Counted from the first letter of the stretch, positions 30,529 to 50,165 are shown. The stretch: 64,000 bases of DNA from Escherichia coli (GCF_051903065.1 NZ_CP178438.1), one strand, 5' to 3'. The notes: generated from the letters alone by a model not told the origin. A program made the numbers and translations.

Positions 30529-30659
30529 CCCGACTCCTTTTTTGTATAGATAAACCATCAGCTGATAGTTTACCTGAAGAATATAGAGAAGTACTTACTT
30601 AACATTTTCCCATTTGGTACTATCTAACCCCTTTTCACTATTAAGAAGTAATGCCTACT

Positions 30660-32693: not shown

Positions 32694-32702
32694 TCCCCCT
32701 TC

Positions 32703-32734
32703 AAGGCGCTGCATCGACAGCGCCTTTTCTTTAT
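32703..32734 (+). terminator. Rho-independent terminator of metG
   Basis: aaggcgctgcatcgacagcgcctt followed by ttctttat. Confidence 0.6.
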
Positions 32735-32833
32735 AAATTCCTAAAGTTGTTTTCTTGTTTGTTCAACGCTCTTAATTTTTTTCATTAACTGCTAGCATCC
32801 GCTTATAACTGGATATAAATACAGGGAACGCGG

Positions 32834-35800
32834 ATGAAGAGTTATATCTATCAGGACGAAAAATCACATAAATTCTGGGCGGTGGAGCAGCAGGGAAACG
32901 AGTTGCATATCAGCTGGGGAAAAGTTGGTACCCAAGGGCAAAGCCAGGTAAAAAATTTTGCTGATGTTGCAGCAGCGGAAAAAGCGAAACTGAAGCTTAT
33001 CGCGGAGAAAACGAAAAAAGGCTATGTGGAAAATGCTTCAGCAAACGTGCATATCCCCCCCATTACCAAAGCCACTCCTGAAGTTGAAACTTCCCCTGAG
33101 AGTAAAAACCAACGCCCCTGGCTGGCTGATGATGCGGTCATTCGGCTAACTGACGATATTAATCGATTTGCTTTTCCTCATCGCTCTCGCCCCAGAGAGA
33201 TCAATTATCTGCACAAAGATGGTCAAATATGGCAGCTCATCGCGAATAACACCAGAGCATATGATCCCGCCAACAATTACCGTTCTTATCCAGAAAACTG
33301 GCAGCAGGCTTTTGCTGAGTTACAAATGCGAGTTCAGGGTAATCAACAGACAGGGAGTGTGCAATCTGATGCAGCATTGCTCTGGAGTTTCTGGAACTCT
33401 TACTCTGCAGATGAACTGGTCGATGACTTAGTCATTCGCTGTGGTCTGGAAAGTGCCGTTGAAATTGCCCTTCTCGCTCTTCAACTTAGATATAAACCAG
33501 TAAAAGCCGACGTCACCACCATCATTCCCCCTGATCTCAAAGCAGAATCGCTACCGAACTGGCATCAACGTCTATGTCATCATCTTTCACTCGCTTCAGA
33601 AGATGAGTGGCAACGCTGTGTAGATAAGGTACTCGCGGCTATTCCCTCGCTATCCCCAGCACGGCAACCTTTTGCGGCGTTACTGATCCCTGAACGCCCG
33701 GATATCGCCAATGCTATGGCGCTACATTATGCAGATCAAAACGTTCCGGCGATGACCTGGTTAAGTATGATGGTAAGCGATGATGTTGCCCTGGCCATCC
33801 AGGAAAAATATGGTTTCCCACCGCTATATAATGATTTCCGCAAATATCTGGCTACGTTACTGGCAAATAATGGAATGCGTGGTGTAAGCCGGATTCTTCT
33901 CAAGCTACCTGTCGACTATCCCGTAAAATACACGGACCTTTTCACTCACATACACGCCAATGCTGAAAATCTTGTCAAATGGCTATGGAAAACGAATCAC
34001 CCGGATGCGATTCAAATTCTGATCCTCGGTGTAAATGGCAAGAAAAAGCACCTGGAATACTTAAGCAAAGCCTGCCAAAAACATCCCGCTGCGGCTATTG
34101 CCGCTTATGCTACTTTGCTGGCAATACATGAAAATAATGAGTGGCGTAAAGCGCTTGTCAAACTGATTACCGCCACGCCAGAGTTAGTATGCGAGGTCAT
34201 TCCCTGGGTTAATGCTAAGGCGGCAGGCATCTTATCTGAATGTCGTCCGCTGCCAATAGCTGAAGAATGTGAATATGCCACTGTGGATATGTTGCCGGAG
34301 CTGCTGGTCGCTCCACCGTGGGTAATAAATAAGAAAAAGAATGTCATACCCGTATTTGATTTACCGGTACTTCCCATTCCTGCCGTCACGGATATCACAC
34401 CAGGAATTACAGAGTTAATCAGTCATACTGACATATCCAGATTCAGTGAAATCGCGCAATATCAGGCATCACAGCAAACCTTATTTACCGACCTGCCACT
34501 AATTGAAAAAGAAAGCTGGGAGACATCTTTCATTCCTTTTACACCAGAACAACAAATTCTTTGGCAATTAGGTTTTAATGAATGGCTGCATTGCGAAAAT
34601 GACTTACATGAAAAAAAATATATACCGCAAAGCGCTGTTGATGCCTTGTTGCGCTTTGATTTTTCAGCACTAAAAGCTGAGTTTGCGAAATATCACAACA
34701 ATGCCAACAAAAGCTGGAATCTATCTGCGCTTTGTTACTTACCGGGACAACAGGCGATCTCATTTCTCAACCAAATAATCATTGAGGAGCGATATTCAGG
34801 TGAGAAAGAGATTCTGGCGGTTTTTGGTAGTACGGCCATTCCTGCGTTTATGACCTGCTTGCAACGAGATCATCAACGCCTGTGGATATTCACCCTTTTT
34901 ATTGGAGCCAGTGAACTAGCCTTACCAATGGCGCAGCGGTTACAGAAAAAAATAGCTTACAAGGATGCCGTTAATTGGCTGGCAAATAACCCGCGCCATG
35001 CCGCCGCCGGGCTACTGCCTTTGGCGCTGGGCAAACCGTGCCAAAATCGGGAATATGCCCGCCAGGCACTCCTCCTGCTAGTGAAATTAAACCAGCGAGA
35101 AACGATTGAGGAAATCGCCCAAGGATATAATCAACCTGATGTTTTAGCTGCGCTGGCAACATTATTTGATAGCGACCCACTGGAAGAATATCCTGCAAAA
35201 ATCGCCCCACTGCCCGGCTTTTATCAGTTCCCCTTATGGCGCAGACCTCGGCTTAAAAGTAACAACCTGCCTCTGCCAGATGACGCTATGCGCCACCTCG
35301 GCACAATGTTGAGCTTTCCACGCGACATTACCTCCTACGCTGGGCTGGCGATCATCAAAGAGACCTTCACCCGCGAATCACTGGCTGACTTTGGCTGGGA
35401 TCTCTACACGGCATGGACAGAAGCAGGCGCACCCGCAAAAGAGAACTGGGCATTTACCTCGCTGGGGATTCTAGGCAATGACGACACCGCGCGTAAACTA
35501 ACCCCGCTCATCCGCGCCTGGCCGGGTGAATCCCAGCATAAACGCGCGGTTTACGGGCTGGATGTGTTAGCCAGTATCGGTAGCGACATTGCGCTTATGT
35601 TGCTTAATGGCATTGCGCAAAAGATTAAATTCGTTGCATTACAGGAATATGCCAGCGACAGAATCAATATGGTCGCCGAAAATCGCGGACTGACAATGGC
35701 CGAACTGGAAGATCGCCTGGCACCGGATTTAGGGCTTGATAGCAGTGGCTCGCTAATATACTGGATTTCGGCCCCCGCAAATTCACCGTTGGTTTTGACG

Positions 35801-36636
35801 AAACCTTAAAACCTGTAGTGTGCGATGCAAACGGCAAAGTCCTGAAAGATTTACCTAAGACAAACCAGAGCGATGATAAAACACTGGCAACTGACGCAGT
35901 TAATCTCTTCAAACAGTTGAAAAAAGATGTTCGTGCTATCGCCAGCCAGCAAATTACCCGTCTGGAACAGGCTATGTGCCAGCGCAGACGCTGGACGGCA
36001 GAGCAGTTCCGCCTGTTTCTGGTGGAGCATCCGCTGGTACGTCACTTAACCCGACGGCTGTTATGGGGGGTTTATAACGATGAAAACGCCCTTATCATCT
36101 GTTTTCGCGTGGCAGAAGACAGCACTTACAGCGATGCGCAGGATGAGTTATTCACGCTGCCAGCAGGAAACATCGGTATACCGCATGTGCTGGAAATCCC
36201 CCCTGAATCCGCCGCTGCATTCAGGCAAATTTACGTTGATTACGAACTGCTTCCCCCTTTCCAACAGCTCGAACGTGGTAGTTACCACCTTGCTGATAAC
36301 GAACGTAATGTCCATGAATTGTCACGCTGGAACGGACGTCTCTGCCAGGCCGGACGCATTGTCGGGCTGGAACGCAGAGGCTGGCAACGTCTGGAAGAAA
36401 GCGGCAGCGTCTATGCGATGCGCAAATCTACCCCTTATGGTGCTCTCGAACTTGAAACAGAACCTTTTTCATTAATTTATGGCGAAACGGGGTATAGCGA
36501 CCTGCTGCCTGTCGAAAGCGTAAAAATCACCGCCCCTTATGATCGCTATGGTAAACAATCCTCACCCACTTTCTCCGTGCTCGACGACATCACCGCCAGC
36601 GAGCTGATTAACGACATTGAATCACTGTTTGATTAA
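32834..36636 (+). pseudogene. Giant WGR-domain / DUF4132-family protein (molR/yehH-like), disrupted by a frameshift near 35757
   Basis: ORFs 32834..35809 (991 aa) and 35818..36636 (272 aa) are in different frames; joined they are colinear with the intact 1249-aa paralog downstream; break is at ctaatatactggat. Confidence 0.75.
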
Positions 36637-36648
36637 AAGGATTTAACA

Positions 36649-39600
36649 ATGAAAACCTATATTTATCAGGACGAAAAATCACATAAATTCTGGGCGGTGG
36701 AGCAGCAGAGAAACGAGCTGCATATCAACTGGGGCAAAGTCGGCACTAACGGGCAAAGTCAGGTAAAAAGCTTTGCTGATGCTGCGGCGGCAGAAAAAGC
36801 GGAACTGAAGCTGATTGCGGAGAAGGTGAAGAAGGGGTATGTGGAAGAATTATCTTCACCATCCCAACCCGCAATCAAAATAGAAACGATCGAAGTAGAT
36901 ACAGCTGACGTGGCAGAAACCAAAGTCGTATTTGACCAAAGTATGGTTGTTGAACCTGCTGAGACACCATGCCCGTGGCTGACAGATGATTCCACTATCC
37001 ATCTATCGGAGAAAAAGTCTCAGGGGGCCTTACCTTCCCGACGTTTTCCTGGGGATGCTGTAAGCGAACCACAAGACAGCCTCCTTATGAATTTAGGTCA
37101 GGATATTCATAATCTATCAGGAAAATTAACAACATACGATTTCAGTGCATGTTCTGCTAACTGGCAGCAGAATATCAATGAAGCTCTCGCTAATGGTCCA
37201 CTTTCTCCTGCTGCGTTGGCTGTACAGGTTGTTCTGGTTTCACGTAAATTCTGGGGCGAATGCCCTGAACTCATGGATGAAATTGTCTATGTCTACGGAC
37301 TAGAATTTGCCGTGGATATGTTTATTGCCATGCAATATATCTCGTTCGATTGCACTTATCACAGAACAAGCATACACATAACTTTTCAGCCATTATTAAT
37401 CCACGCACATTGTGTTACCCCCTTTGACGTTCGACTGCGTAAACATTTGGCTCTAGCAGAAGAAACTTTGTGGCAACGCTGTGTAGATAAATTCATTACA
37501 GCTTTGCCTGATATTCCTCCCGTTCAACAACCGATGGTAGCGCTAATGCTACCGGAACGCCCGGAGATTGCAGAAGAAGTCGCACGACGGTTACTGGAGC
37601 AGAAAAATGGCCACACTGTTGAATGGCTGAAACTTGTTGTACAAGAATCTTCCTTGCTCAAAGCACTGGAATCTTATTGCGCGTACGACCTTTTTAATGA
37701 CTATTACCATGGTTGCATCTGGAATGTCACCGTTTTGCAGGAGCAAGGGATTGCCGGAATCGCTCGCTTCGCCCCCTATGCTTATGCTGATCTTTGCGGA
37801 AGTATTCTCGCAGAGATCAATCACCCACAAGCATTAATGCTACTTATACGTGTGTCTGGCAAAACTAAACGCTGCCATGAACGAATGACTACGGCTTGCG
37901 CTGCGTTCCCACACGCAGCACTGGCAGCACTGGCGGAACTTCTAGTGCAAAAAGAAGAGAATAGTTGGCGCATTATGCTAATGACGATGCTTATCTCGCA
38001 ACCGACACTAGCAGAACAGGTCATTCCCTGGCTTTCGACACCCGCAGTTGCAGTGCTGAAATCATGCCAGCAACAACTGACACAGCCCTCAAACCATGCC
38101 TGCGTCGATCTACTGCCTGCCGTATTAGTCTCACCGCCCTGGCTTTCGAAAAAGAAAAAATCTGTAATGCCGGTATTGGATTTAACGCCATTACCGTTGG
38201 AGTCATGCTGTACATTGACCGAGACGGCAGAAAAAGAGATTCATGCAAGGCATCGCTGGCACGCACATCAAATAGACATCGGCCAAAAAGAGGATATTCA
38301 GAACTACCTGGCACGTCTGGGTTTCAATCGCTGGAATAATGGCCAGTATATGAAAGCGCCTGATGCTGCTATAGAGCTCTGGCAAAGGGGAGATTATTCC
38401 GCGCTGATCAGCGAATTTAAAACCTTCTGGCACTCCTATCAACGGGAATGGCAGCTTTACATGTTAGCCGCCCTGCCTATCGAAAAGACAGCGCAGGCGT
38501 GGAATGTCCTCAGTAAAGAGCCACACGTCGGTGTCGAGTTTGTCATGACGCACCTGCAACTCACTGGGTTACAGGGTTTTATTCACTCCTTTTCACGCTA
38601 CCCGCAAGAAGCTCTGCCTGTAGCACAATATTTTGCGGCTATCGAATTAGCGCCACTGATCGCCCGTGCCTTCAACAAACTCAAAACCCTACGACAAGAC
38701 GCCCGTAGCTGGCTGCTAAAATACCCGGAACACGCCATAACCGGCCTGCTGCCTTCGGCGCTCGGCAAAGCCGGTGAAGCACAGGATAACGCTCGCGCTG
38801 CCTTACGTATGCTTACCGAAAACGGTCATCAGCCATTACTGCAAGAAATCGCCCGGCGTTATAACCAGCCGGAAGTAACCGACGCGGTGAACGCTCTGCT
38901 TGCGCTCGATCCCTTAGATAATCACCCGACAAAAATCCCCACTCTTCCGGCCTTTTATCAGCCATCGCTCTGGACGCGCCCGGTATTAAATACAAACGCC
39001 CAATCACTGCCAGATAGCGCACTCCAGCACCTCGGTGAAATGCTCCGCTTCCCTCAGGAAGAGGCCCTGTATCCGGGATTATTGCAGGTGAAAGATGCCT
39101 GTACCGCCGACTCACTGGCTGAATTTGCCTGGGATCTGTTTACCGCCTGGTTGACTGCGGGCGCACCGTCGAAAGAGAGTTGGGCGTTCACTGCGTTAGG
39201 CGTTCTTGGTAACGATGACACCGCCCGCAAACTGACGCCATTAATACGCGCCTGGCCTGGTGAATCCCAGCATAAACGCGCCACCGTTGGGTTGGATATT
39301 CTCGCCGCTATCGGTAGTGATATCGCCCTGATGCAGCTTAACGGTATTGCCCAGAAACTGAAATTCAAAGCATTACAGGAGCGGGCAAAAGAAAAAATTG
39401 CCGACATTGCCGAAAGCCGCGAACTCACGGTGGCAGAGCTTGAAGATCGGTTAGCACCGGATCTCGGTCTGGATGATAACGGTTCGTTGCTGCTGGATTT
39501 CGGCTCACGCCAGTTCACCGTCAGCTTTGATGAAACCTTAAAACCGTTTGTGCGTGATGTTTCTGGCAGCCGTCTGAAAGACCTGCCCAAACCAAACAAA

Positions 39601-40398
39601 AGCGATGATGAATCACAGGCGAACGATGCTGTTAACCGCTACAAATTGCTGAAAAAAGATGCGCGTACCGTCGCCGCCCAGCAGGTAGCAAGGCTGGAAT
39701 CCGCCATGTGCCTGCGCCGCCGCTGGTCGCCGGAAAACTTCCAGCTCTTCCTGGTTGAGCATCCGTTGGTTCGCCACTTAACCCGCCGTCTGATTTGGGG
39801 TGTTTATAGCGCCGAAAACCAGCTACTGGCTTGCTTTCGCGTAGCGGAAGATAACAGCTACAGTACCGCTGACGATGATCTTTTCACCCTGCCGGAAGGC
39901 GATATCTCTATCGGCATTCCTCACGTTCTGGAAATATCACCAACGGATGCTGCCGCCTTTGGTCAGCTTTTTGCCGACTACGAACTGCTACCACCGTTCC
40001 GTCAGCTTGACCGTAACAGTTACGCCCTGACAGAAGCCGAGCGCAACGCCAGCGAACTGACCCGCTGGGCAGGCAGAAAATGCCCGAGCGGTCGGGTCAT
40101 GGGGCTGGCGAATAAAGGCTGGATAAAGGGCACCCCGCAGGATGGAGGCTGGATCGGCTGGATGATCAAACCTCTCGGTCGCTGGTCGTTAATCATGGAA
40201 ATCGATGAAGGTTTTGCGGTAGGCATGTCGCCAGCCGAACTGAGTGCCGAGCAGCTCTTAAGCAAGCTGTGGCTATGGGAAGGCAAAGCAGAAAGCTATG
40301 GCTGGGGGAGTAATTCAACACAGGAAGCGCAGCTCTCCGTACTCGATGCCATCACCGCCAGCGAGCTGATTAACGATATTGAAGCTCTGTTTGAATAA
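36649..40398 (+). CDS. Giant WGR-domain / DUF4132-family protein (molR/yehI paralog), intact
   Basis: 1249 aa; N-terminal 66 aa near-identical to the upstream gene (MKTYIYQDEKSHKFWAVEQQ...WGKVG); 12-bp gap from upstream gene. Confidence 0.8.
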   Translation: MKTYIYQDEKSHKFWAVEQQRNELHINWGKVGTNGQSQVKSFADAAAAEKAELKLIAEKVKKGYVEELSSPSQPAIKIETIEVDTADVAETKVVFDQSMVVEPAETPCPWLTDDSTIHLSEKKSQGALPSRRFPGDAVSEPQDSLLMNLGQDIHNLSGKLTTYDFSACSANWQQNINEALANGPLSPAALAVQVVLVSRKFWGECPELMDEIVYVYGLEFAVDMFIAMQYISFDCTYHRTSIHITFQPLLIHAHCVTPFDVRLRKHLALAEETLWQRCVDKFITALPDIPPVQQPMVALMLPERPEIAEEVARRLLEQKNGHTVEWLKLVVQESSLLKALESYCAYDLFNDYYHGCIWNVTVLQEQGIAGIARFAPYAYADLCGSILAEINHPQALMLLIRVSGKTKRCHERMTTACAAFPHAALAALAELLVQKEENSWRIMLMTMLISQPTLAEQVIPWLSTPAVAVLKSCQQQLTQPSNHACVDLLPAVLVSPPWLSKKKKSVMPVLDLTPLPLESCCTLTETAEKEIHARHRWHAHQIDIGQKEDIQNYLARLGFNRWNNGQYMKAPDAAIELWQRGDYSALISEFKTFWHSYQREWQLYMLAALPIEKTAQAWNVLSKEPHVGVEFVMTHLQLTGLQGFIHSFSRYPQEALPVAQYFAAIELAPLIARAFNKLKTLRQDARSWLLKYPEHAITGLLPSALGKAGEAQDNARAALRMLTENGHQPLLQEIARRYNQPEVTDAVNALLALDPLDNHPTKIPTLPAFYQPSLWTRPVLNTNAQSLPDSALQHLGEMLRFPQEEALYPGLLQVKDACTADSLAEFAWDLFTAWLTAGAPSKESWAFTALGVLGNDDTARKLTPLIRAWPGESQHKRATVGLDILAAIGSDIALMQLNGIAQKLKFKALQERAKEKIADIAESRELTVAELEDRLAPDLGLDDNGSLLLDFGSRQFTVSFDETLKPFVRDVSGSRLKDLPKPNKSDDESQANDAVNRYKLLKKDARTVAAQQVARLESAMCLRRRWSPENFQLFLVEHPLVRHLTRRLIWGVYSAENQLLACFRVAEDNSYSTADDDLFTLPEGDISIGIPHVLEISPTDAAAFGQLFADYELLPPFRQLDRNSYALTEAERNASELTRWAGRKCPSGRVMGLANKGWIKGTPQDGGWIGWMIKPLGRWSLIMEIDEGFAVGMSPAELSAEQLLSKLWLWEGKAESYGWGSNSTQEAQLSVLDAITASELINDIEALFE

Positions 40399-40407
40399 GG
40401 AAAGAGC

Positions 40408-43400
40408 ATGGACAAGGAATTACCGTGGCTGGCGGATAACGCCCAAGTGGAACTGAAATATAAAAAAGGCAAAACACCACTCAGCCATCGCAATTGGCCG
40501 GGCGAACCGGTGCCTGTTATCACTGAAAGCCTCATCCAGACACTGGGTGATGAATTGCTACAAAAAGCAGAGAAGAAAAAAAACATTGTCTGGCGTTATG
40601 AAAATTTTTCACTGGAGTGGCAGTCCGCCATTACGCAGGCCATCAACTTGATCGGCGAACACAAACCCTCAGTCCCGGCCCGCACAATGGCGGCGCTAGC
40701 CTGTATCGCGCAAAATGACAGCCAACAGTTGCTCGACGAAATCGTCCAACAAGAGGGGCTGGAATATGCGACTGAGGTGGTGATTGCACGCCAGTTTATT
40801 GCACGGTGTTATGAAAGTGATCCTCTGGTAGTCACATTGCAGTATCAGAACGAGGACTATGGCTATGGTTATCGCTCAGAAACCTATAACGAATTCGATC
40901 TCCGACTGCGTAAACACCTCTCTCTGGCAGAGGAAAGCTGCTGGCAGCGTTGCGCCGACAAACTCATTGCCGCACTGCCAGGAATAACCAAAGTTCGCCG
41001 TCCTTTTATTGCGCTGATCCTCCCGGAAAAGCCTGAAATAGCCAATGAACTCGCCAGTCTTGAAAGCTCCCGGTCAAGTCTCCATTCAAAGGAGTGGTTA
41101 AAGGTCGTTGCTACTGATAATACGGCGGTAAAAAAACTCGAACGATACTGGGGCCTGGACGTATTTAGCGATCGCGAAGCCAGCTACATGTCACAAAAAA
41201 ACCACTTCGGCTACGCGGCCTGCGCCGCCCTTTTGCGCGAACAAGGACTGGCAGCCATTCCGCGCCTCGCGATGTATGCCCATAAAGAAGATTGCGGCAG
41301 TCTGTTGGTACAAATTAACCATCCGCAGGTCATCCACACCTTGCTACTGGTGGCTGATAAAAACAAACCCAGCCTGCAACGTGTGGCTAAATACAGTAAA
41401 AACTTCCCCCACGCGACGCTCGCGGCACTGGCAGAACTGCTGGCGTTAAAAGAACCACCAGCCCGCCCTGGTTATCCAATCATCGAAGACAAAAAGCTGC
41501 CTGCCCAGCAAAAAGCACGCGATGAATACTGGCGTACGCTGTTACAAACGCTGATGGCATCGCAGCCACAACTGGTAGAAGAGGTGATGCAGTGGTTAAG
41601 TACTCAAGCCCGGGCAGTACTGAATAGTTATTTATTGGCACCGCCCAAACCGGTTATTGATGGCACCGATAACAGCAATCTGCCTGAAATCCTCGTTTCA
41701 CCACCGTGGCGTAGTAAGAAAAAAATGACAGCTCCACGTCTTGATTTGGCACCGCTCGAATTAACCCCGCAAGTTTACTGGCAACCAGGCGAACAAGAGA
41801 GGCTTGCCTCCACTGAGTCTGCCCGTTATTTCAGCACGGAATCTCTTGCGGAACGCATGGAACAAAAAAGTGGGCGAGTTGTATTACAGGAACTGGGTTT
41901 TGGGGATGATGTATGGCTGTTTCTGAATTATATACTCCCCGGAAAACTGGATGCTGCACGCAATTCACTCATTGTTCAGTGGCATTACTACCAGGGGCGG
42001 GTTGAAGAGATCCTGAATGGCTGGAACTCCCCGGAAGCACAATTAGCAGAACAGGCGCTCCGCAGCGGTCACATAGAAGCGTTAATTAACATATGGGAAA
42101 ATGACAACTACTCACGTTATCGTCCGGAAAAGAGTGTCTGGAACCTGTATTTATTGGCACAGTTGCCGCGTGAGATGGCTTTGACCTTCTGGCTGCGTAT
42201 CAATGAGAAAAAACATCTGTTCGCGGGTGAGGACTATTTTCTCAGTATCCTCGGATTGGATGCGCTACCAGGTCTGCTGTTGGCTTTTTTACATCGTCCA
42301 AAAGAAACATTTCCGTTAATTTTAAATTTTGGCGCAACAGAACTGGCCCTGCCCGTTGCCCGCGTCTGGCACCGTTTTGCGGGCCAGCGTAATCTGGCTC
42401 GCCAGTGGATTTTACAATGGCCGGAACATACGGCTACTGCACTTATCCCTCTTGTCTTTATCAAACCCAGCGATAATAGCGAAGCCGCATTACTTGCCCT
42501 GCGTTTACTGTACGAACAGGGACATGGCGAGTTGCTGCAAACCGTGGCAAACCGCTGGCAACGCGCTGATGTATGGCCTGCCCTGGAGCAGTTGCTTAAA
42601 CAGGGTCCAATGGACATTTACCCGGCACGCATTCCAAAAGCCCCTGATTTCTGGCATCCGCAAATGTGGTCCAGGCCGCGCCTTATCACTAATAATCAAC
42701 CTGTTACCGATGACGCTCTGGAAATTATCGGCGAAATGCTGCGCTTTACCCAGGGGGGACGTTTTTATAGCGGTCTGGAACAACTGAAAACGTTTTGCCA
42801 GCCACAAACGCTGGCCGCTTTTGCCTGGGATCTCTTCACTGCGTGGCAACAAGCTGGTGCCCCCGCAAAAGACAACTGGGCATTTCTGGCGTTAAGTCTC
42901 TTTGGTGACGAAAGCACGGCTCGGGATCTGACGACACAGATCCTCGCCTGGCCACAAGAAGGCAAATCTGCCCGTGCTGTCAGCGGCCTGAACATCCTTA
43001 CCCTGATGAATAATGATATGGCGCTGATGCAGCTGCATCATATATCGCAACGGGCTAAATCCCGCCCCTTACGTGATAACGCGGCGGAATTTCTTCAGGT
43101 GGTCGCAGAAAATCGCGGGCTAAGCCAGGAAGAGCTAGCGGACAGATTAGTCCCAATCCTGGGCCTTGATGATCCGCAGGCGTTGAGTTTTGATTTTGAT
43201 CCCCGGCAGTTTACCGTTCGCTTCGATGAAAACCTCAACCCGGTTATCTTTGATCAGCAAAACGTTCGCCAGAAAAGTGTTCCCCGGTTGCGTGCCGATG
43301 ACGATCAACTGAAAGCGCCCGAGGCACTGGCCCGACTAAAAGGGCTAAAAAAAGATGCTACTCAGGTGAGCAAAAACCTGCTCCCGCGTCTTGAAGCTGC

Positions 43401-44040
43401 CCTACGTACCACCCGACGCTGGTCGCTGGCAGATTTTCATTCTCTGTTTGTTAATCATCCCTTTACCCGCCTGGTTACCCAGCGATTAATATGGGGGGGT
43501 TATCCGGCAAATGAACCGCGTCGTTTACTCAACGCCTTTCGTGTGGCCGCAGAGGGGGAGTTCTGCAATGCGCAGGATGAGCCCATTGACCTTCCTGCGG
43601 ATGCTCTGATTGGCATTGCCCACCCGTTAGAAATGACAGCAGAAATGCGCAGTGAATTTGCACAGCTTTTTGCCGATTACGAAATTATGCCGCCTTTTCG
43701 CCAGTTGTCGCGCCGCACGGTGCTGCTCACACCTGACGAGTCAACCAGTAACAGCCTGACTCGCTGGGAAGGTAAATCCGCTACCGTTGGGCAACTTATG
43801 GGAATGCGATACAAAGGCTGGGAATCAGGCTATGAGGACGCATTTGTCTATGACCTGGGTGAGTACCGGCTGGTCCTTAAGTTTTCACCCGGTTTTAACC
43901 ACTACAATGTTGATAGCAAAGCGCTAATGAGCTTCCGTTCTCTTCGAGTGTACCGTGACAATAAATCCGTCACTTTTGCCGAACTTGATGTGTTTGATTT
44001 GAGAGAGGCGTTAAGCGCACCTGACGTCATTTTCCATTAA
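40408..44040 (+). CDS. yehI: Giant DUF4132-family protein YehI (paralog lacking the N-terminal WGR module)
   Basis: 1210 aa; shares conserved C-terminal blocks with the two upstream genes (e.g. DDTARKLTPLIRAWPGESQHKRA-like, RRWS..F..FLVEHP..R); 9-bp gap from upstream gene. Confidence 0.8.
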   Translation: MDKELPWLADNAQVELKYKKGKTPLSHRNWPGEPVPVITESLIQTLGDELLQKAEKKKNIVWRYENFSLEWQSAITQAINLIGEHKPSVPARTMAALACIAQNDSQQLLDEIVQQEGLEYATEVVIARQFIARCYESDPLVVTLQYQNEDYGYGYRSETYNEFDLRLRKHLSLAEESCWQRCADKLIAALPGITKVRRPFIALILPEKPEIANELASLESSRSSLHSKEWLKVVATDNTAVKKLERYWGLDVFSDREASYMSQKNHFGYAACAALLREQGLAAIPRLAMYAHKEDCGSLLVQINHPQVIHTLLLVADKNKPSLQRVAKYSKNFPHATLAALAELLALKEPPARPGYPIIEDKKLPAQQKARDEYWRTLLQTLMASQPQLVEEVMQWLSTQARAVLNSYLLAPPKPVIDGTDNSNLPEILVSPPWRSKKKMTAPRLDLAPLELTPQVYWQPGEQERLASTESARYFSTESLAERMEQKSGRVVLQELGFGDDVWLFLNYILPGKLDAARNSLIVQWHYYQGRVEEILNGWNSPEAQLAEQALRSGHIEALINIWENDNYSRYRPEKSVWNLYLLAQLPREMALTFWLRINEKKHLFAGEDYFLSILGLDALPGLLLAFLHRPKETFPLILNFGATELALPVARVWHRFAGQRNLARQWILQWPEHTATALIPLVFIKPSDNSEAALLALRLLYEQGHGELLQTVANRWQRADVWPALEQLLKQGPMDIYPARIPKAPDFWHPQMWSRPRLITNNQPVTDDALEIIGEMLRFTQGGRFYSGLEQLKTFCQPQTLAAFAWDLFTAWQQAGAPAKDNWAFLALSLFGDESTARDLTTQILAWPQEGKSARAVSGLNILTLMNNDMALMQLHHISQRAKSRPLRDNAAEFLQVVAENRGLSQEELADRLVPILGLDDPQALSFDFDPRQFTVRFDENLNPVIFDQQNVRQKSVPRLRADDDQLKAPEALARLKGLKKDATQVSKNLLPRLEAALRTTRRWSLADFHSLFVNHPFTRLVTQRLIWGGYPANEPRRLLNAFRVAAEGEFCNAQDEPIDLPADALIGIAHPLEMTAEMRSEFAQLFADYEIMPPFRQLSRRTVLLTPDESTSNSLTRWEGKSATVGQLMGMRYKGWESGYEDAFVYDLGEYRLVLKFSPGFNHYNVDSKALMSFRSLRVYRDNKSVTFAELDVFDLREALSAPDVIFH

Positions 44041-44100
44041 AACACAGCGGGCAGTGATGCAACTGCCTGTTATTAACACGACTTACCAGCGGGGAAAGCG

Positions 44101-44418
44101 ATGATCGTGCAAAAAGAGCTGGTTGCTATTTACGATTATGAGGTCCCTGTACCTGAAGATCCGTTTTCCTTCAGACTTGAGATCCATAAATGCTCTGAAT
44201 TATTTACAGGTTCCGTCTATCGACGGGAGCGATTCCGGCTACATCCAACATTTCATCAACGTGATCGAGAAGATGCTGACCCGCTAATAAATGATGCGTT
44301 GATTTATATAAGAGATGAGTGTATTGATGAGCGGAAATTACGAGGTAAATCACCTGAAACTGTAATAGCAATTTTTAATCGTGAACTACAGAATATATTC
44401 AACCAAGAAATAGAATAA
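44101..44418 (+). CDS. yehK: Small hypothetical protein YehK
   Basis: 105-aa ORF, AT-rich, immediately downstream of yehI. Confidence 0.7.
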   Translation: MIVQKELVAIYDYEVPVPEDPFSFRLEIHKCSELFTGSVYRRERFRLHPTFHQRDREDADPLINDALIYIRDECIDERKLRGKSPETVIAIFNRELQNIFNQEIE

Positions 44419-44527
44419 TATACTCTAGATAATTCAAGTCGCAGCACATGCAACTTGAAGTATGACGAGTATAGCTTTATTAAAGGGGGAAGCGGTTTTC
44501 CCCCTTAGATGCGTTTCAATTTGCCCG

Positions 44528-44617
44528 TTACTTCAACAAATCAATCAACCGTAACAGAGCCACTAATAACTCCAGTACGGCAATGAGCACGATTAACTTT
44601 TGTGTCAGCGTGTCCAT
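44528..44617 (-). CDS. Type I toxin, ZorO/ZorP-like 29-aa hydrophobic peptide (copy 1)
   Basis: Minus-strand ORF MDTLTQKLIVLIAVLELLVALLRLIDLLK with strong SD (taaggagagcggATG); downstream terminator hairpin gggggaa-gcgg-ttttccccc. Confidence 0.85.
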   Translation of the reverse strand: MDTLTQKLIVLIAVLELLVALLRLIDLLK

Positions 44618-44802
44618 CCGCTCTCCTTATTAAGGAGCGCAACACCAGCACCTTACCCTTACACTGCCTGTCGATACTGGTTTACGTATGTTGGTACGAA
44701 ACGTTGCTCTCCGGATCAGGGCACCGCCTGCGGCACCACCCGTCCAGCAGCCAGGACTTAAAATTGGTCCGATCCGGCACAACCTCCCAACGGGCAGGAT
44801 TA

Positions 44803-44849: not shown

Positions 44850-44856
44850 TTATTCG

Positions 44857-45457: not shown

Positions 45458-45464
45458 TCGTTCG

Positions 45465-45547: not shown

Positions 45548-45658
45548 TTTACTATGATCTGCTTTCCAGATATTTTTTGCTCAAACAACTAATGCGCCAA
45601 ACATTTATTGCGCGTAAAATATCGTTTATTTCATTAATACATTTCAGGGATGAATATA

Positions 45659-46746
45659 TGTCACCGCAGAATAATCATCTGCAGCGTCCGCCTGCTGCTG
45701 TGTTATACGCCGATGAACTGGCAAAATTAAAACAAAATGATACCGCACCTTGCCCGCCCGGTTGGCAGTTAAGTTTGCCTGCGGCCCGTGCTTTTATCCT
45801 TGGCGATAGCGCGCAAAATATTAGCCGTAAAGTGGTGATTAGTCCCTCCGCTGTCGAACGTATGTTAGTCACTCTTGCCACCGGACGCGGTTTGATGTTG
45901 GTGGGGGAACCTGGCACCGCAAAATCTCTCCTGTCTGAATTACTGGCAACCGCTATTAGCGGCGATGCCGGGTTAACCATCCAGGGCGGTGCATCTACTA
46001 CCGAAGATCAAATCAAGTACGGCTGGAACTACGCCCTGCTTATCAATCATGGTCCATCAACGGAAGCGCTGGTCCCTGCCCCGCTTTACCAGGGAATGCG
46101 CGACGGCAAAATCGTCCGTTTTGAAGAGATAACGCGTACACCGCTGGAAGTGCAAGACTGTCTGTTAGGTATGCTTTCTGACAGGGTGATGACGGTGCCG
46201 GAACTCACTGGTGAAGCCAGTCAGCTCTATGCGCGAGAAGGCTTTAATATTATTGCCACTGCCAATACCCGCGATCGCGGCGTCAATGAAATGAGTGCTG
46301 CGCTAAAGCGTCGCTTCGATTTTGAAACTGTCTTTCCGATTATGGATTTCGCCCAGGAGCTGGAGCTTGTCGCCAGTGCTTCGGCGCGTTTGCTGGCCCA
46401 TAGCGGTATTCCGCATAAAGTGCCTGACGCGGTACTGGAGTTACTGGTCCGCACTTTCCGCGATCTGCGTGCCAACGGCGAAAAGAAAACGTCAATGGAT
46501 ACACTAACAGCGATTATGTCCACCGCTGAAGCCGTGAACGTGGCCCACGCTGTGGGCGTCCGCGCCTGGTTTTTGGCGAATCGCGCAGGTGAGCCAGCCG
46601 ATCTGGTGGACTGTATTGCCGGAACCATCGTTAAAGATAACGAAGAAGATCGCGCTCGTCTGCGCCGTTACTTCGAACAGCGTGTCGCCACACATAAAGA
46701 AGCTCACTGGCAGGCTTATTATCAAGCCCGCCACCGCCTGCCGTGA
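45659..46746 (+). CDS. yehL: MoxR-like AAA+ ATPase YehL
   Basis: 362 aa from MSPQNNHLQ (SD agggatgaatatATG); Walker A GEPGTAKS, Walker B-like IVRFEEI. Confidence 0.88.
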
Positions 46747-46756: not shown

Positions 46757-49036
46757 ATGAGCGAGCCGTTAATTGTCGGCATCCGGCATCATAGTCCGGC
46801 CTGCGCCCGGCTGGTGAAATCGTTAATCGAAAGCCAGCGGCCACGATACGTGTTGATTGAAGGCCCGGCTGATTTTAATGACCGGGTAGACGAACTGTTT
46901 TTAGCCCACCAGCTTCCGGTAGCTATTTACAGTTATTGCCAGTATCAGGACGGTGCAGCCCCCGGGCGTGGTGCCTGGACGCCATTTGCTGAATTTTCGC
47001 CGGAGTGGCAGGCGCTACAAGCCGCTCGTCGTATTCAGGCACAAACTTACTTCATCGATTTGCCTTGCTGGGCACAGAGTGAAGAAGAGGACGATTCGCC
47101 TGATACGCAAGAGGAAAGCCAGACCTTGCTGCTGCGTGCCACCCGCATGGATAACAGCGATACCCTGTGGGATCACTTGTTCGAAGATGAAAGCCAGCAA
47201 ACTGCATTACCCTCTGCACTGGCGCACTATTTTGCCCAACTGCGGGGCGATTTCCCCGGCGATGCACTCAATCGTCAGCGCGAAGCCTTTATGGCTCGCT
47301 GGATTGGATGGGCGGTGCAGCAAAATAATGGCGACGTGTTAGTCGTCTGCGGTGGCTGGCACGCTCCGGCACTGGCAAAAATGTGGCGCGAATGCCCGCA
47401 GGACATTAACAAGCCAGAATTGCCCTCGCTGGCAGATGCCGTTACAGGTTGTTATCTCACACCCTACAGTGAAAAGCGCCTTGATGTGCTGGCAGGATAC
47501 CTTTCAGGAATGCCTGCCCCGGTCTGGCAAAGCTGGTGCTGGCAGTGGGGCTTACAGCAGGCGGGAGAACAACTGCTAAAAACGGTTCTTACCCGTTTGC
47601 GCCAACACCACTTGCCTGCTTCGACCGCGGATATGGCTGCCGCTCATCTGCATGCGATGGCGCTGGCACAGTTGCGCGGACATAAACTACCGTTACGCAC
47701 TGACTGGCTGGATGCCATAGCAGGCTCGCTGATTAAAGAAGCCCTGAACGCGCCGTTGCCGTGGAGCTATCGCGGAGTTATTCATCCCGACACCGATCCG
47801 ATTCTGCTAACGTTGATAGACACATTAGCGGGTGACGGATTCGGTAAACTTGCCCCTTCTACGCCACAACCGCCTCTGCCAAAAGATGTCACCTGCGAAC
47901 TGGAACGTACCGCAATCTCTCTTCCGGCGGAGCTTACCTTAAATCGCTTTAACCCCAATGGACTAGCGCAAAGTCAGGTGTTACATCGGCTGGCAATACT
48001 GGAGATCCCAGGGATTGTACGCCAGCAGGGAAGCACACTGACACTTGCAGGCAACGGTGAAGAACGCTGGAAATTAACCCGCCCGCTTAGCCAGCATGCG
48101 GCATTGATTGAGGCCGCCTGCTTTGGTGCCACACTCCAGGAAGCCGCACGCCATAAATTAGAAGCCGATATGCTGGACGCGGGTGGAATCGGCAGTATCA
48201 CCACATGTCTTAGCCAGGCGGCGTTAGCGGGTCTGGCGTCCTTCAGTCAACAATTACTGGAGCAACTCACATTATTAATCGCCCAGGAAAATCAATTTGC
48301 CGAAATGGGGCAGGCGCTGGAAGTCCTTTATGCCTTATGGCGGTTAGATGAAATCAGCGGTATGCAAGGCGCGCAGATATTGCAGACGACGTTATGTGCG
48401 GCTATCGATCGCACGCTCTGGCTGTGTGAATCCGACGGCAAACCGGATGAAAAGGAGTTTCACGCTCACCTGCATAGCTGGCAGGCGCTTTGCCATATCC
48501 TGCGCGATCTACATAGCGGCGTTAATTTACCCGGCGTTTCTCTTTCTGCGGCGGTGGCCTTACTGGAACGCCGCAGTCAGGCAATTCATGTCCCGGCGCT
48601 GGATCGCGGCGCGGCTCTTGGCGCACTGATGCGTCTGGAACATCCCAACGCCAGTGCCGAAGCGGCGCTGACAATGCTGGCGCAGTTATCCCCGGCACAA
48701 TCCGGCGAGGCGCTGCACGGTTTGCTGGCGCTCGCCCGTCATCAACTGGCCTGCCAGCCGGCATTTATCGCCGGTTTCAGCAGTCATTTAAATCAACTGA
48801 ATGACGACGATTTTATTAACGCCCTGCCCGATTTACGCGCGGCGATGGCCTGGCTACCACCACGAGAACGCGGGACGCTGGCGCATCAGGTGCTTGAGCA
48901 TTATCAACTGGCGCAACTTCCCGTTTCGGCGCTGCAAATGCCGTTGCATTGTCCACCACAAGCCATTGCACATCATCAACAACTCGAACAGCAGGCACTG
49001 GCATCGCTGCAAAACTGGGGAGTTTTCCATGTCTGA
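46757..49036 (+). CDS. yehM: Large uncharacterised protein YehM (partner of MoxR ATPase)
   Basis: 759 aa from MSEPLIVGIRHHSPACARL; 10 bp after yehL stop; stop overlaps yehP start by 8 nt. Confidence 0.85.
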   Translation: MSEPLIVGIRHHSPACARLVKSLIESQRPRYVLIEGPADFNDRVDELFLAHQLPVAIYSYCQYQDGAAPGRGAWTPFAEFSPEWQALQAARRIQAQTYFIDLPCWAQSEEEDDSPDTQEESQTLLLRATRMDNSDTLWDHLFEDESQQTALPSALAHYFAQLRGDFPGDALNRQREAFMARWIGWAVQQNNGDVLVVCGGWHAPALAKMWRECPQDINKPELPSLADAVTGCYLTPYSEKRLDVLAGYLSGMPAPVWQSWCWQWGLQQAGEQLLKTVLTRLRQHHLPASTADMAAAHLHAMALAQLRGHKLPLRTDWLDAIAGSLIKEALNAPLPWSYRGVIHPDTDPILLTLIDTLAGDGFGKLAPSTPQPPLPKDVTCELERTAISLPAELTLNRFNPNGLAQSQVLHRLAILEIPGIVRQQGSTLTLAGNGEERWKLTRPLSQHAALIEAACFGATLQEAARHKLEADMLDAGGIGSITTCLSQAALAGLASFSQQLLEQLTLLIAQENQFAEMGQALEVLYALWRLDEISGMQGAQILQTTLCAAIDRTLWLCESDGKPDEKEFHAHLHSWQALCHILRDLHSGVNLPGVSLSAAVALLERRSQAIHVPALDRGAALGALMRLEHPNASAEAALTMLAQLSPAQSGEALHGLLALARHQLACQPAFIAGFSSHLNQLNDDDFINALPDLRAAMAWLPPRERGTLAHQVLEHYQLAQLPVSALQMPLHCPPQAIAHHQQLEQQALASLQNWGVFHV

Positions 49037-50165
49037 ACTGAACGATCTTCTGACCAACCGTGAGCTACAACGCTGGCGATTAATTCTTGGCGAAGCGGCA
49101 GAAACGACGCTTTGTGGGCTGGATGACAACGCCCGGCAGATAGACCACGCGCTGGAGTGGCTGTATGGGCGCGATCCTGAACGGCTCCAGCGTGGTGAAC
49201 GTTCCGGTGGATTAGGTAGCTCAAATCTCACCACCCCTGAGTGGATCAACAGTATTCACACGCTGTTTCCGCAACAGGTGATTGAGCGGCTGGAAAGCGA
49301 TGCCGTACTGCGCTACGGCATTGAAGATGTGGTGACGAATCTCGACGTGCTGGAACGTATGCAGCCTTCTGAAAGCCTGCTACGCGCCGTTTTGCACACC
49401 AAACATCTGATGAACCCCGAAGTACTGGCTGCCGCCCGCCGGATAGTGCGCCAGGTTGTTGAAGAAATTATGGCTCGACTGGCAAAGGAAGTTCGTCAGG
49501 CTTTTTCTGGTGTCCGCGATCGCCGTCGCCGCTCATCTATTCCACTGGCGCGAAACTTTGATTTCAAAAGTACTCTTCGCGCCAATCTGCAACACTGGCA
49601 CCCGCAACACGGCAAGTTGTATATCGAATCCCCCCGCTTTAACAGCCGCATTAAACGCCACAGTGAACAATGGCAACTGGTCTTACTGGTTGATCAAAGC
49701 GGATCGATGGTGGACTCGGTGATCCACTCTGCGGTGATGGCGGCCTGTTTGTGGCAGTTACCCGGCATTCGTACCCATCTGGTGGCGTTTGACACCAGCG
49801 TGGTTGATCTCACGGCAGACGTTGCCGATCCGGTAGAGTTATTAATGAAAGTGCAATTAGGCGGCGGAACCAATATCGCCAGTGCCGTGGAATATAGTCG
49901 GCAACTTATTGAACAACCAGCGAAAAGCGTCATTATCCTCGTGAGCGATTTTTACGAAGGGGGTTCATCATCATTACTGACGCATCAGGTGAAAAAGTGT
50001 GTCCAGAGCGGCATCAAAGTGCTGGGATTGGCAGCGCTCGATAGCACAGCTACGCCTTGCTATGACCGCGATACGACCCAGGCGCTGGTTAATGTCGGCG
50101 CACAAATAGCCGCCATGACGCCGGGCGAGCTGGCATCATGGCTTGCGGAGAATCTTCAGTCATGA
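49029..50165 (+). CDS. yehP: von Willebrand factor A (VWA) domain protein YehP
   Basis: 378 aa from MSELNDLLT; MIDAS motif DxSxS (LLVDQSGSM); upstream part of the 454-aa ORF overlaps yehM and is judged spurious. Confidence 0.85.
   Translation: MSELNDLLTNRELQRWRLILGEAAETTLCGLDDNARQIDHALEWLYGRDPERLQRGERSGGLGSSNLTTPEWINSIHTLFPQQVIERLESDAVLRYGIEDVVTNLDVLERMQPSESLLRAVLHTKHLMNPEVLAAARRIVRQVVEEIMARLAKEVRQAFSGVRDRRRRSSIPLARNFDFKSTLRANLQHWHPQHGKLYIESPRFNSRIKRHSEQWQLVLLVDQSGSMVDSVIHSAVMAACLWQLPGIRTHLVAFDTSVVDLTADVADPVELLMKVQLGGGTNIASAVEYSRQLIEQPAKSVIILVSDFYEGGSSSLLTHQVKKCVQSGIKVLGLAALDSTATPCYDRDTTQALVNVGAQIAAMTPGELASWLAENLQS

Follow-up and report, generated by a model that had tools for sequence, protein, structure and literature searches.

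The third component of the MoxR-vWA ternary conflict systems is VMAP, in which a variable N-terminal domain and a highly variable all-alpha middle are followed by a conserved alpha/beta C-terminus. The VMAP C-terminal domain has conserved polar residues without obvious enzymatic activity (PMC7159879; Kaur, Burroughs, Iyer and Aravind 2020, eLife). YehL is one of seven MoxR subfamilies, and the characterized MoxR proteins are chaperone-like maturation factors (PMC3893208). The locus analyzed here resembles the ternary systems in encoding a MoxR AAA+ ATPase, a vWA protein, and a large third protein. It also resembles the classical MoxR/VWA pairs (RavA-ViaA, CoxD-CoxE, NorQ-NorD, CbbQ-CbbO), in which the gene of an AAA_5 MoxR ATPase accompanies that of a VWA protein with a MIDAS motif.

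The WGR-DUF4132 array

The window is the whole stretch of DNA that was analyzed, 64,000 nucleotides from Escherichia coli (NZ_CP178438.1). Beside metG, it contains three same-strand genes of the WGR/DUF4132 family, G1, G2 (molR), and G3 (yehI). E. coli 23CRST027 is 100% identical to the window, and RefSeq has the same three genes there, G1 being labeled 'DUF4132 domain-containing protein, frameshifted' (pseudogene). All three genes are thus already in the RefSeq annotation. The features of the array are as follows.

32703..32726, plus strand: terminator-like hairpin of metG, 9-bp stem (6 G-C pairs), then a T run
32834..36636, plus strand: G1, WGR-solenoid-DUF4132 paralog, pseudogene here, 1266 codons when the frameshift is removed
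32834..33031, plus strand: G1 WGR module, amino acids 1-66; NCBIfam and PDB WGR-type matches over amino acids 1-77
35759..35760, plus strand: inserted 'TA' (2 bp), cause of the G1 frameshift, about 25 codons 5' of the G1 DUF4132
35833..36384, plus strand: G1 DUF4132, complete, in the second reading frame; Pfam PF13569, E 1.9e-50
36649..40398, plus strand: G2, intact WGR-solenoid-DUF4132 protein of 1249 amino acids, ortholog of K-12 molR
36667..36849, plus strand: G2 WGR domain, amino acids 7-67; Pfam PF05406, E 1.7e-17; PDB 2ra8_A WGR, E 2e-17
39565..40122, plus strand: G2 DUF4132, amino acids 973-1158; Pfam PF13569, E 1.1e-51
40408..44040, plus strand: G3 (yehI), paralog without WGR, 1210 amino acids
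43267..43821, plus strand: yehI DUF4132; Pfam PF13569, E 1.9e-46
44101..44418, plus strand: yehK, small gene 3' of the array, with a homolog also in E. whittamii

The hairpin lies 5' of the array, and G1 starts 108 bp downstream of it. The spacers are 12 bp between G1 and G2 and 9 bp between G2 and G3, in agreement with the initial annotation, which had placed three paralogous genes 9 to 12 bp apart on one strand. The paralogy was also borne out: amino acid identity is 48% between G1 and G2, 40% between G2 and G3, and 34% between G1 and G3, and the homology spans the full length of the proteins rather than being limited to the N-terminus. The near-identical WGR-like start of about 66 residues that had been noticed in G1 and G2 is 88% identical over the first 66 amino acids (36 of 210 nucleotides differ in the DNA), and neither the Pfam scan nor the paralog alignment found a WGR in yehI, in keeping with the different start noted for that gene. 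On G2 and yehI, Pfam-A (E <= 10) gave only WGR and DUF4132, plus an insignificant NiFeSe_Hases match on yehI (E 0.12), and no PARP catalytic (ADP-ribosyltransferase) domain was found in these scans. Matches in the PDB sequence search were confined to the WGR region. Family-profile searches with yehK, including PADLOC, gave no match.

The structure model (pLDDT 88, pTM 0.78) consists of an alpha-solenoid and an alpha/beta domain. G2 is modeled as helical up to about amino acid 935, and the C-terminal third models with pLDDT 88-90. The best Foldseek matches were karyopherins, PP2A-A, and SF3B1, all of them weak (E >= 3e-3, TM 0.1-0.19). No enzyme fold was recognized in the model, and HEAT-repeat matches were weak only. 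The WGR-DUF4132 proteins are large and, as far as the model can tell, probably non-catalytic scaffolds.

Decay of G1 and age of the trio

G1 is split between a first frame at 32834-35809 and a second at 35818-36636, the latter being open from 35743. When the 'TA' at 35759-35760 was deleted in silico, a single frame of 1266 codons resulted, and the same 2 bp are missing from the aligned intact G1 orthologs of three other strains (L003, L004, and L005). The frameshift recognized in the initial annotation is thus a 2-bp insertion. The 71-bp stretch with this insertion was found in 3 of 5,426 complete E. coli genomes, and by sequence comparison the decay of G1 is a very recent lesion confined to one lineage. 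Decay in one copy, as first described, therefore holds for G1 here, but the lesion is lineage-restricted, and G1, molR, or yehI has been hit independently in other strains. Of 18 sampled genomes, 12 have only intact copies, with ORFs of about 1,200 codons, which together with dN/dS of 0.08-0.46 argues for functionality.

At least 80% of G1 is covered in 1,629 of the 5,426 genomes (about 30%), and G1 is missing from about 70%. Since K-12 has just a molR pseudogene and yehI, and G1 is absent, the present strain carries one more gene. It had been described as more complete than K-12, and this is correct as to one extra gene; however, the extra gene is G1 and not a fuller molR, the ortholog of which is G2. 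Klebsiella oxytoca and E. whittamii have an ortholog of each of the three paralogs. Therefore, the three genes are ancestral and K-12 has lost G1, and the expansion suggested earlier is not a recent one.

Mosaic alleles of G2

Variation between G2 alleles is concentrated in two modules, which are followed by a conserved C-terminal third.

36796..37998, plus strand: hypervariable module A, amino acids about 50-450, N-terminal part of the alpha-solenoid
38146..38748, plus strand: hypervariable module B, amino acids about 500-700, 34-54% identity between classes
38749..40395, plus strand: conserved C-terminal third, solenoid end and alpha/beta domain, putative docking region

Between E. coli allele classes, module A has 22-58% amino acid identity (48-64% over amino acids 100-450), with pS about 0.7. 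The C-terminal 550 amino acids are 90-100% identical among all E. coli alleles, and the C-terminal third is the most conserved region across the 6,034 clusters of the family. Module A of the present allele is 57-60% identical to Klebsiella G2 versus 49-50% to other E. coli alleles, and the allele classes appear to be older than the Escherichia-Klebsiella split. Modules A and B reassort independently: P0033 shares A and not B, and P0040 shares B and not A. Judged from these alignments, the G2 alleles in E. coli are mosaics. The present allele is matched over at least 80% of its length in just 154 of the 5,426 genomes. Thus, the early suggestion of a diversifying locus is supported more strongly than one sequence could reveal, by mosaic, hypervariable allele classes.

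Pairwise dN/dS never exceeded 1. The dN/dS check proposed in the initial annotation gave 0.1-0.5 with saturated dS, and recent positive selection was not indicated. Low dN/dS together with saturated dS points to ancient, maintained, and recombined alleles.

Linkage to yehLMPQ

Downstream of the array and yehK lie four genes.

45658..46746, plus strand: yehL, MoxR-type AAA+ ATPase (AAA_5), as in RefSeq
46757..49036, plus strand: yehM, DUF5682 protein; Pfam PF18934, E 6.5e-99
49029..50165, plus strand: yehP, VWA protein of 378 amino acids, MIDAS motif DQSGS at amino acid 222
50162..52165, plus strand: yehQ, SWIM zinc-finger protein; Pfam SWIM, E 1.3e-3

YehL itself has weak GvpN/MadB AAA matches, and its homologs have Pfam AAA_5 and bpMoxR matches; homologs of YehP match Pfam VWA_CoxE and VWA_2. 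With the P-loop GEPGTAKS of YehL, the MIDAS motif of YehP, and two CxCx(5-6)CxH SWIM motifs in YehQ, all read from the sequence, the YehLMPQ machine looks active. The four genes are colinear, with 95-97% identity, in 5,202 of the 5,426 E. coli genomes.

When each species was represented by a single genome, DUF4132 genes adjoined yehL/M/P/Q homologs in 55 of the 74 loci scanned; among the other 19 are short contigs and inner segments of long Massilia arrays. Linkage was seen in Gamma- and Betaproteobacteria, Myxococcota, Actinobacteria, and an acidobacterial MAG, among others. Most of these taxa have the DUF4132 genes directly upstream of the yehLMPQ homologs, an order shared by two metagenome contigs (L008 and L010), where the genes overlap; the order in Burkholderia is L-M-P-Q-DUF. 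Most taxa have one DUF4132 copy, Klebsiella, Escherichia, and Duganella have 2-3 in tandem, and Massilia has at least 6-7. The 6,034 family clusters (at 50% identity) keep invariant residues and synteny across phyla. The mosaicism, this cross-phylum linkage, and the solenoid plus alpha/beta model go beyond the initial annotation.

Proposed role of the array

Since the same four-gene, ATP-driven yehLMPQ neighbor is found across bacteria, the DUF4132 genes look like interchangeable sensor/adaptor subunits. We consider the chances about even that the trio encodes alternative sensor/adaptor (specificity) subunits of the downstream YehLMPQ machine, with a role in biological conflict. Each protein has three parts, namely an N-terminal WGR (except in yehI), a long, putatively HEAT/ARM-like alpha-solenoid, and a conserved C-terminal alpha/beta region with DUF4132. 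The third component of the MoxR-vWA ternary conflict systems is a precedent for such a protein. The conserved C-terminal third might dock on the invariant YehLMPQ machine, and the hypervariable N-terminal two-thirds of the solenoid, aided by the WGR, might recognize variable ligands. The locus would then evolve as a recognition repertoire, in which recombination reshuffles allele classes of great age that have been retained, paralogs number 1 to 6 or more depending on the taxon, and single copies are repeatedly lost or inactivated, like G1 here. Its most likely purpose would be biological conflict, either anti-phage or anti-mobile-element.

The analysis shows the homology, the domain content, the mosaic hypervariability, the conserved linkage, and the predicted fold, whereas docking, ligand sensing, and a defence or other conflict role are inferred. 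Several searches bear on the proposal. In PADLOC-DB v2, there was no significant match for G1, G2, yehI, or YehK/L/M/P/Q; the lone match, of G1 to WGR_XIII (E 0.005), was marginal, and no stretch passed. No effector domain such as a nuclease, protease, NADase, or pore-former could be recognized in these eight proteins. The family did not occur in 50,697 phage records, and on plasmids it is rare, with 31 of 72,556 records containing it, several of which are chromosome-sized. These results count against the proposal, as do the pairwise dN/dS values, none of which exceeds 1, and the nature of the E. coli locus, which is a fixed core-genome site and not a mobile island. In addition, a 1.2-kb zorO/orzO insert lies between the array and yehL in E. 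coli, so that co-expression of the array and yehL is not assured, which also speaks against the sensor/adaptor reading. Our literature search found nothing on the function of these genes, no interaction, expression, or phenotype data for the locus, and neither a defence phenotype nor an effector for the system.

A broader proposal, which we put forward tentatively and hold to be improbable as a whole, is that yehLMPQ and the WGR-DUF4132 array might form an unrecognized, widespread immune-like system. One invariant MoxR AAA+/VWA/SWIM/DUF5682 engine would serve a set of interchangeable solenoid sensors, from 1 to more than 6 in number. Balancing selection would maintain the recognition modules of these sensors as trans-species allele classes, and recombination between alleles and paralogs would reshuffle them. 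If so, E. coli would have a germline-encoded recognition repertoire within its core genome.

Alternative explanations

YehLMPQ might instead be a housekeeping MoxR-VWA maturation or remodeling machine like CoxD/E, NorQ/D, CbbQ/O, and RavA/ViaA. The WGR-DUF4132 proteins would then be its scaffolds or clients, for example in metal-cofactor or nucleoprotein assembly, and the variability would come from weak constraint on the solenoid surface plus recombination rather than from conflict. The chaperone-like character of MoxR proteins (PMC3893208), the VWA_CoxE match of YehP homologs, and the dN/dS below 1 are consistent with such a machine, and so are the chromosomal, core, and vertically inherited locus without phage copies and with few plasmid copies and the lack of any effector domain or PADLOC match. 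However, a client would not be expected to have allele classes that exceed the divergence of the genus split in one part and are 96-100% identical in the rest, to occur in anything between 1 and 6 or more tandem copies depending on the taxon, or to be pseudogenized independently in many strains including K-12. We therefore regard a housekeeping role as possible but rather doubtful.

It is less probable still that the array is a non-functional, decaying remnant whose diversity comes from relaxed selection before loss, although G1, frameshifted here, is missing in about 70% of E. coli genomes, K-12 and other strains have molR as a pseudogene, and the region contains IS1 in some strains and TnMB1860 in ST131 (PMC9334617). 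The intact ORFs of about 1,200 codons in 12 of 18 genomes, dN/dS values of 0.08-0.46, and the 6,034 clusters with invariant residues and cross-phylum synteny all argue against a relic.

The historical name of MolR, a transcriptional regulator of molybdate metabolism, persists in some entries ('molybdate metabolism regulator MolR', 'MolR family transcriptional regulator'), and this legacy is all that favors such a function. The protein is a 1,250-amino acid solenoid without a DNA-binding regulator domain (Pfam gives WGR and DUF4132 alone), its conserved neighbors are an AAA+/VWA/SWIM set (yehK/L/M/P/Q in the window) and not molybdenum genes, and it is a pseudogene in K-12, which makes the function very improbable. 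Finally, a recent, strain-specific tandem duplication or assembly artefact, the latter raised in the initial annotation and favored by nothing except the tandem layout, was rejected as extremely improbable, since the copies are only 34-48% identical, which rules out an assembly duplication, and the same trio is found in hundreds of independent complete genomes (927 with at least 80% of the region covered) and in E. whittamii and K. oxytoca.

Comparison with known systems

WGR is a nucleic-acid-binding fold in PARPs. The N-terminal 70 or so amino acids match the Pfam WGR (E 1.7e-17) and B. fragilis 2ra8_A (E 2e-17), whereas PARP3 WGR gives no significant match (E 0.8). Instead of WGR, the motif reads WGK, and nucleic-acid binding is putative; unlike PARPs, the DUF4132 proteins have no PARP catalytic or helical regulatory domain.

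Bacterial Avs/NLR-like STAND proteins are pattern-recognition repertoires that pair a conserved signaling part with a variable repeat sensor. The array may work in a similar way, its solenoid being variable and the partner-facing part conserved, and it likewise shows varying copy number, diverse alleles, and frequent pseudogenes. However, the DUF4132 proteins lack a STAND NTPase, and the ATPase is a separate MoxR protein; the resemblance is an analogy and not membership. The classical MoxR/VWA pairs serve one defined client complex, whereas the pair here is adjoined by DUF5682 and SWIM proteins and by hypervariable solenoid proteins that number 1 to 6 or more.

In the VMAP ternary systems, the layout of the third component matches WGR/solenoid/DUF4132, and paralogous diversification occurs in both. 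PMC7159879 does not mention YehL, SWIM, or WGR, and VMAP-C was not reported on G2 or yehI in the Pfam-A sequence-profile scan, for which the presence of VMAP models in the scanned set is unconfirmed. YehP is a short VWA protein without fused effector domains, and what diversifies here is the third component, through tandem copies and alleles, not vWA-fused effectors. Moreover, the present locus is a fixed core locus of unicellular enterobacteria and has two more conserved components, DUF5682 and SWIM.

Gene organization and the frameshift in G1

The gene order in this part of the window is apbC (minus strand), metG, three long genes on the same strand, yehK, a 1.2-kb spacer, and yehL-yehM-yehP-yehQ. 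The three long genes are WGR/DUF4132 paralogues:

32834-36636, same strand as G2 and G3: G1, in two reading frames
36649-40398, same strand as G1 and G3: G2, starting 12 bp after G1
40408-44040, same strand as G1 and G2: G3 (yehI), starting 9 bp after G2

The sequence from 32600 to 44500 is 100% identical to that of E. coli strain 23CRST027. A 1266-codon frame of G1 is regained once 'TA' at 35759-35760 is deleted, and exactly these two bases are missing from the intact G1 orthologues of three other strains. The insertion lies about 25 codons 5' of a complete DUF4132 domain, which is read in the second frame. The 71-bp stretch with the insertion was found in only 3 of 5,426 complete genomes, and therefore the lesion is recent and lineage-restricted. 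The genes are annotated in every E. coli genome, and the array as such is not new. Since the frameshift was also annotated already, the finding as first stated is ordinary.

The spacer between yehK and yehL contains the following features:

44528-45546: zorO/orzO type I toxin-antitoxin module, in two tandem copies
44528-44617 and 45136-45225, minus strand: two 29-aa ORFs, MDTLTQKL[I/T]VLIAVLELLVALLRLIDLLK
44863-44936 (88.8 bits) and 45471-45546 (99.9 bits), plus strand: two Rfam OrzO-P antitoxin RNAs

These copies match the z3289/z3290 locus, which is located between yehI and yehL and is missing from K-12 (Fozo et al. 2010, PMC2887945). Elsewhere in the window, at about 22949-27270, the fimbrial usher gene yehB is fragmented in the identical strain by a frameshifted IS903B-like element and IS1A (L001 2350-6671), and a stray PTS-IIB fragment is annotated within the yehB region of that strain.

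Homology and age of the three paralogues

The initial annotation described a tandem array of three paralogues, the first frameshifted and only the first two with a WGR domain, and this was borne out in every particular. Alignment of the three translations demonstrated homology from end to end and not only at the N-terminus, with amino acid identities of 48% (G1-G2), 40% (G2-G3), and 34% (G1-G3). An assembly duplication artefact, the alternative raised at that stage, was excluded because the copies share only 34-48% identity and the array is present in other genomes. G2 matches WGR at aa 7-67 (E 1.7e-17) and DUF4132 at aa 973-1158 (E 1.1e-51). YehI matches DUF4132 only, and it begins at a 'PWLADD' motif, where G1 and G2 run on past WGR and a linker. 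For profile searches, proteins longer than 1,200 aa were queried as shortened sequences. Against NCBIfam, only the WGR region matched, to the unrelated 'LIC_11051' model and far under its cutoff. PDB sequence searches with G2 and the DUF4132 profile returned WGR matches or noise alone, and those with YehM and YehQ returned no match.

The first 66 aa of G1 and G2, the WGR region, are 88% identical. Recent gene conversion between the two modules was rejected, since their DNA differs at 36 of 210 positions and the WGR sequences do not group by strain. With a dN/dS of about 0.1, the likeness is better explained by purifying selection on WGR.

In line with the initial annotation, K-12 has a single WGR-DUF4132 gene, the frameshifted pseudogene molR, plus yehI. 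By megablast, G1 was matched with at least 80% coverage in 1,629 of 5,426 genomes, and the rest, K-12 included, matched in the WGR segment only. The 3' half of G2 was matched in nearly all genomes, K-12 molR among them. It follows that molR is orthologous to G2 and that the additional gene is G1. Three tandem genes are also present in E. whittamii and K. oxytoca, and in its conserved parts each of them is the counterpart of one of G1, G2, and G3 (for instance, the second K. oxytoca gene is 81% identical to G2, 62% to G1, and 45% to G3), and thus the trio predates the Escherichia-Klebsiella split. K. grimontii has the G2 and G3 types only, and Erwinia has a single G2-like gene. By these comparisons the two-gene state is a loss. 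The proposed expansion in this strain did not hold; the trio is old and was partly lost in K-12. A phage origin of the family was ruled out by the lack of any match in phage records, and a plasmid origin by matches in only 31 of 72,556 records.

Recurrent loss

We inspected 18 annotated genomes, which were picked down the similarity ranking and are not a random sample, and at least one paralogue was disrupted in six of them, by different lesions. Disruptions affect G1 in 2 of its 9 carriers, molR/G2 in 4 of the 18 genomes, and yehI in 1 of 18. One further genome has a shortened G2, and in the remaining inspected genomes all copies are intact ORFs of about 1,200 codons. IS1 elements were found within the array of some genomes (rows H14 and H24 of the genome match list), and in ST131 a transposon, TnMB1860, has inserted in this region (PMC9334617). 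Among the neighboring genes, yehL is frameshifted in NR329 (L004 13938-14861), where the three DUF4132 genes are intact, and yehK is frameshifted in Esc14 and in the ST131 strain JJ1887 (L086 and L097).

Mosaic alleles of G2

The comparison of G2 alleles is the most striking result of the analysis. Between E. coli alleles, identity is at least 82% in the WGR domain and 90-100% over the last ~550 aa. Between allele classes, it is only 22-58% in module A (aa ~50-450) and 34-54% in module B (aa ~500-700). In DNA sequence, strains share about 50-57% identity over the variable part, vs 95-98% over the neighboring metG. Database matches fall into length classes of 1249, 1264, 1253, 1252, and 1262 aa, with identities from 97% to 73%, and all are from Escherichia. 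The two modules reassort independently: of the database alleles, P0033 shares module A but not B, and P0040 module B but not A. The allele P0039 differs from G2 of this strain in aa 50-300 only. This E. coli protein of 1233 aa is a clean chimera, with its first ~290 aa 84-100% identical to G1 and the rest 88-100% identical to G2 of this strain, and therefore recombination between G1 and G2 does occur.

In module A, the G2 of this strain shares more with Klebsiella G2 (57-60% identity) than with the other G2 alleles of E. coli (49-50%). For the C-terminal part, identity is 96-100% among E. coli alleles and about 80% against Klebsiella. Therefore, the allele classes either predate the split of the genera or were imported, and the C-terminus has been homogenised within the species by recombination. 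In the variable modules synonymous differences are saturated (pS 0.68-0.75) and dN/dS is about 0.2-0.3. Going by these values, the alleles appear to be old and under purifying selection, not recent positive selection. Pairwise dN/dS never exceeded 1, with dS saturated in the variable modules, and positive selection was rejected on this measure. The suggestion of a diversifying locus thus stands for the mosaic allele classes but not for positive selection.

G1 and yehI have a milder form of the same pattern, with patches of 68-86% nucleotide identity and a dN/dS of 0.37-0.45 in N-terminal or middle segments vs 0.11-0.24 elsewhere. By contrast, yehLMPQ is colinear and 95-97% identical in 5,202 of 5,426 genomes.

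At their 5' ends, K-12-type molR genes (MRHFI...) resemble the way G1-type genes begin in strains with three genes. Compared with K-12-type strains, this strain has a dS of 0.16-0.26 in conserved parts of the DUF4132 genes (38749-40395) vs 0.079 in metG (30651-32693), and metG itself is only 95-98% identical among the sampled strains. The whole neighborhood may have an unusually deep genealogy.

Predicted structure

The AlphaFold model of G2 aa 50-1249, made with a 55-sequence alignment, was confident (pLDDT 88.3, pTM 0.78). Up to about aa 935 the model is a long alpha-helical solenoid, and an alpha/beta region comes after it. Modules A and B sit on the N-terminal two-thirds of the solenoid, and the invariant residues are concentrated in the last third of the solenoid and the alpha/beta domain. 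Foldseek against the PDB gave weak HEAT/ARM-repeat matches alone (karyopherins, PP2A-A, SF3B1; all E >= 3e-3). No catalytic fold or family was recognisable in the array proteins by Pfam, NCBIfam, PADLOC, or PDB sequence searches.

Linkage to yehLMPQ across taxa

A search of 1.84 billion cluster representatives returned 6,034 related clusters, 2,674 of them at E <= 1e-30, and the part conserved across clusters is G2 aa ~630-1249. On metagenome contigs with distant members, the WGR/DUF4132 gene adjoins genes for AAA_5, DUF5682, VWA_CoxE, and a ~675-aa protein, and the genes overlap. We collected 74 loci, one genome per species, from Gamma- and Betaproteobacteria, Myxococcota, Actinobacteria, Trichlorobacter, and an acidobacterial MAG. 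In 55 of the 74, yehL/M/P/Q homologues (phmmer, E. coli Yeh queries) are beside the DUF4132 gene or genes, mostly directly downstream, and the 19 loci without such neighbors include short contigs and internal stretches of long arrays.

Most taxa have one copy. There are two to three tandem copies in Klebsiella, Escherichia, Duganella, and a Rhodanobacteraceae MAG, at least three in Ramlibacter and Rhodoferax, and at least 6-7 per 23 kb in several Massilia spp. The last copy of enterobacterial arrays has no WGR, as in E. coli. Very long DUF4132 arrays, most genes with WGR, were seen in Massilia spp. (L037/L066/L058, L043/L064, L051/L070, L055/L065), where overlapping loci suggest at least 10 genes per array; at least two of these arrays (L037, L055) end in yehLMPQ homologues. 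On metagenome contig ERZ25070695 (L009 6883-12213), a 1,776-aa member carries a fused histidine-kinase module (HATPase_c, faint HisKA); its gene directly follows one for a response regulator and precedes one for an AAA_5 protein. This arrangement is a hint that two-component signalling involves some members of the family.

Of the proteins encoded in the window, YehL carries the P-loop GEPGTAKS, YehP the MIDAS motif DQSGS, and YehQ two SWIM motifs of the form CxCx(5-6)CxH, and YehM matches DUF5682 (E 6.5e-99). Judged by these motifs, the YehLMPQ machine looks intact.

Possible function and comparison with known systems

The best-supported reading is that G1, G2, and yehI encode subunits of the YehLMPQ MoxR-AAA+/VWA/SWIM machine that serve as alternatives to one another, as adaptors or sensors. 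In it, the conserved tail would make the contact with the machine, and variable ligands would be bound by the variable solenoid, which WGR precedes. The analysis shows the linkage, the architecture, and the evolutionary pattern; the docking, the recognition of ligands, and the purpose are inferences. Ancient allele classes shuffled by recombination, one to at least six copies, repeated inactivation, and an invariant partner together look like the signature of conflict recognition repertoires. Against a defence role, no effector domain was found in the eight proteins and PADLOC gave no significant match for any of them, there are no phage copies and few plasmid copies (31 of 72,556 records), the locus has a fixed core-genome site, and dN/dS is below 1. 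All of these fit the main rival, a housekeeping MoxR-VWA chaperone with the array products as scaffold or client proteins, for which there is precedent (PMC3893208) and to which the VWA_CoxE matches also point, but a chaperone accounts poorly for the allele structure and the copy-number variation. The legacy label 'molybdate regulator' has no support in the sequence.

In the literature searched, we found no functional paper on DUF4132 or molR/yehI, no paper at all on DUF5682 or the yehLMPQ operon, only a subfamily listing for YehL, and no functional study of WGR with MoxR/SWIM or of WGR with phage. Three things appear to be unreported there: the mosaic hypervariability, how old the allele classes are, and the near-constant association of yehLMPQ with WGR-DUF4132 genes in varying number. 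With the analysis, a set of 'DUF' genes gains a testable model, which proposes a conserved machine driven by ATP and served by hypervariable adaptors that can be exchanged; the analysis also maps which protein parts are variable and which conserved. If the conflict reading holds, a function would be assigned to a system that is very common in bacteria (its family has at least 6,000 clusters at 50% identity, in many phyla) and of which K-12 has one paralogue as a pseudogene, and trans-species allele maintenance in a bacterial core genome would gain an added case. If it does not, the locus keeps its use as a marker for deep recombination and for the repeated loss of genes in E. coli.

Among described systems, the nearest in kind are the MoxR-vWA 'ternary' conflict systems, in which the third component combines a variable, all-alpha middle with a C-terminal alpha/beta domain that is conserved and apparently non-enzymatic (PMC7159879). 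YehL, SWIM, and WGR are unmentioned in that paper, Pfam finds no VMAP domain in G2 or yehI, and no effector is fused to YehP. Therefore, we treat YehLMPQ with its WGR-DUF4132 proteins as similar to the ternary systems in design and not as a member of them.
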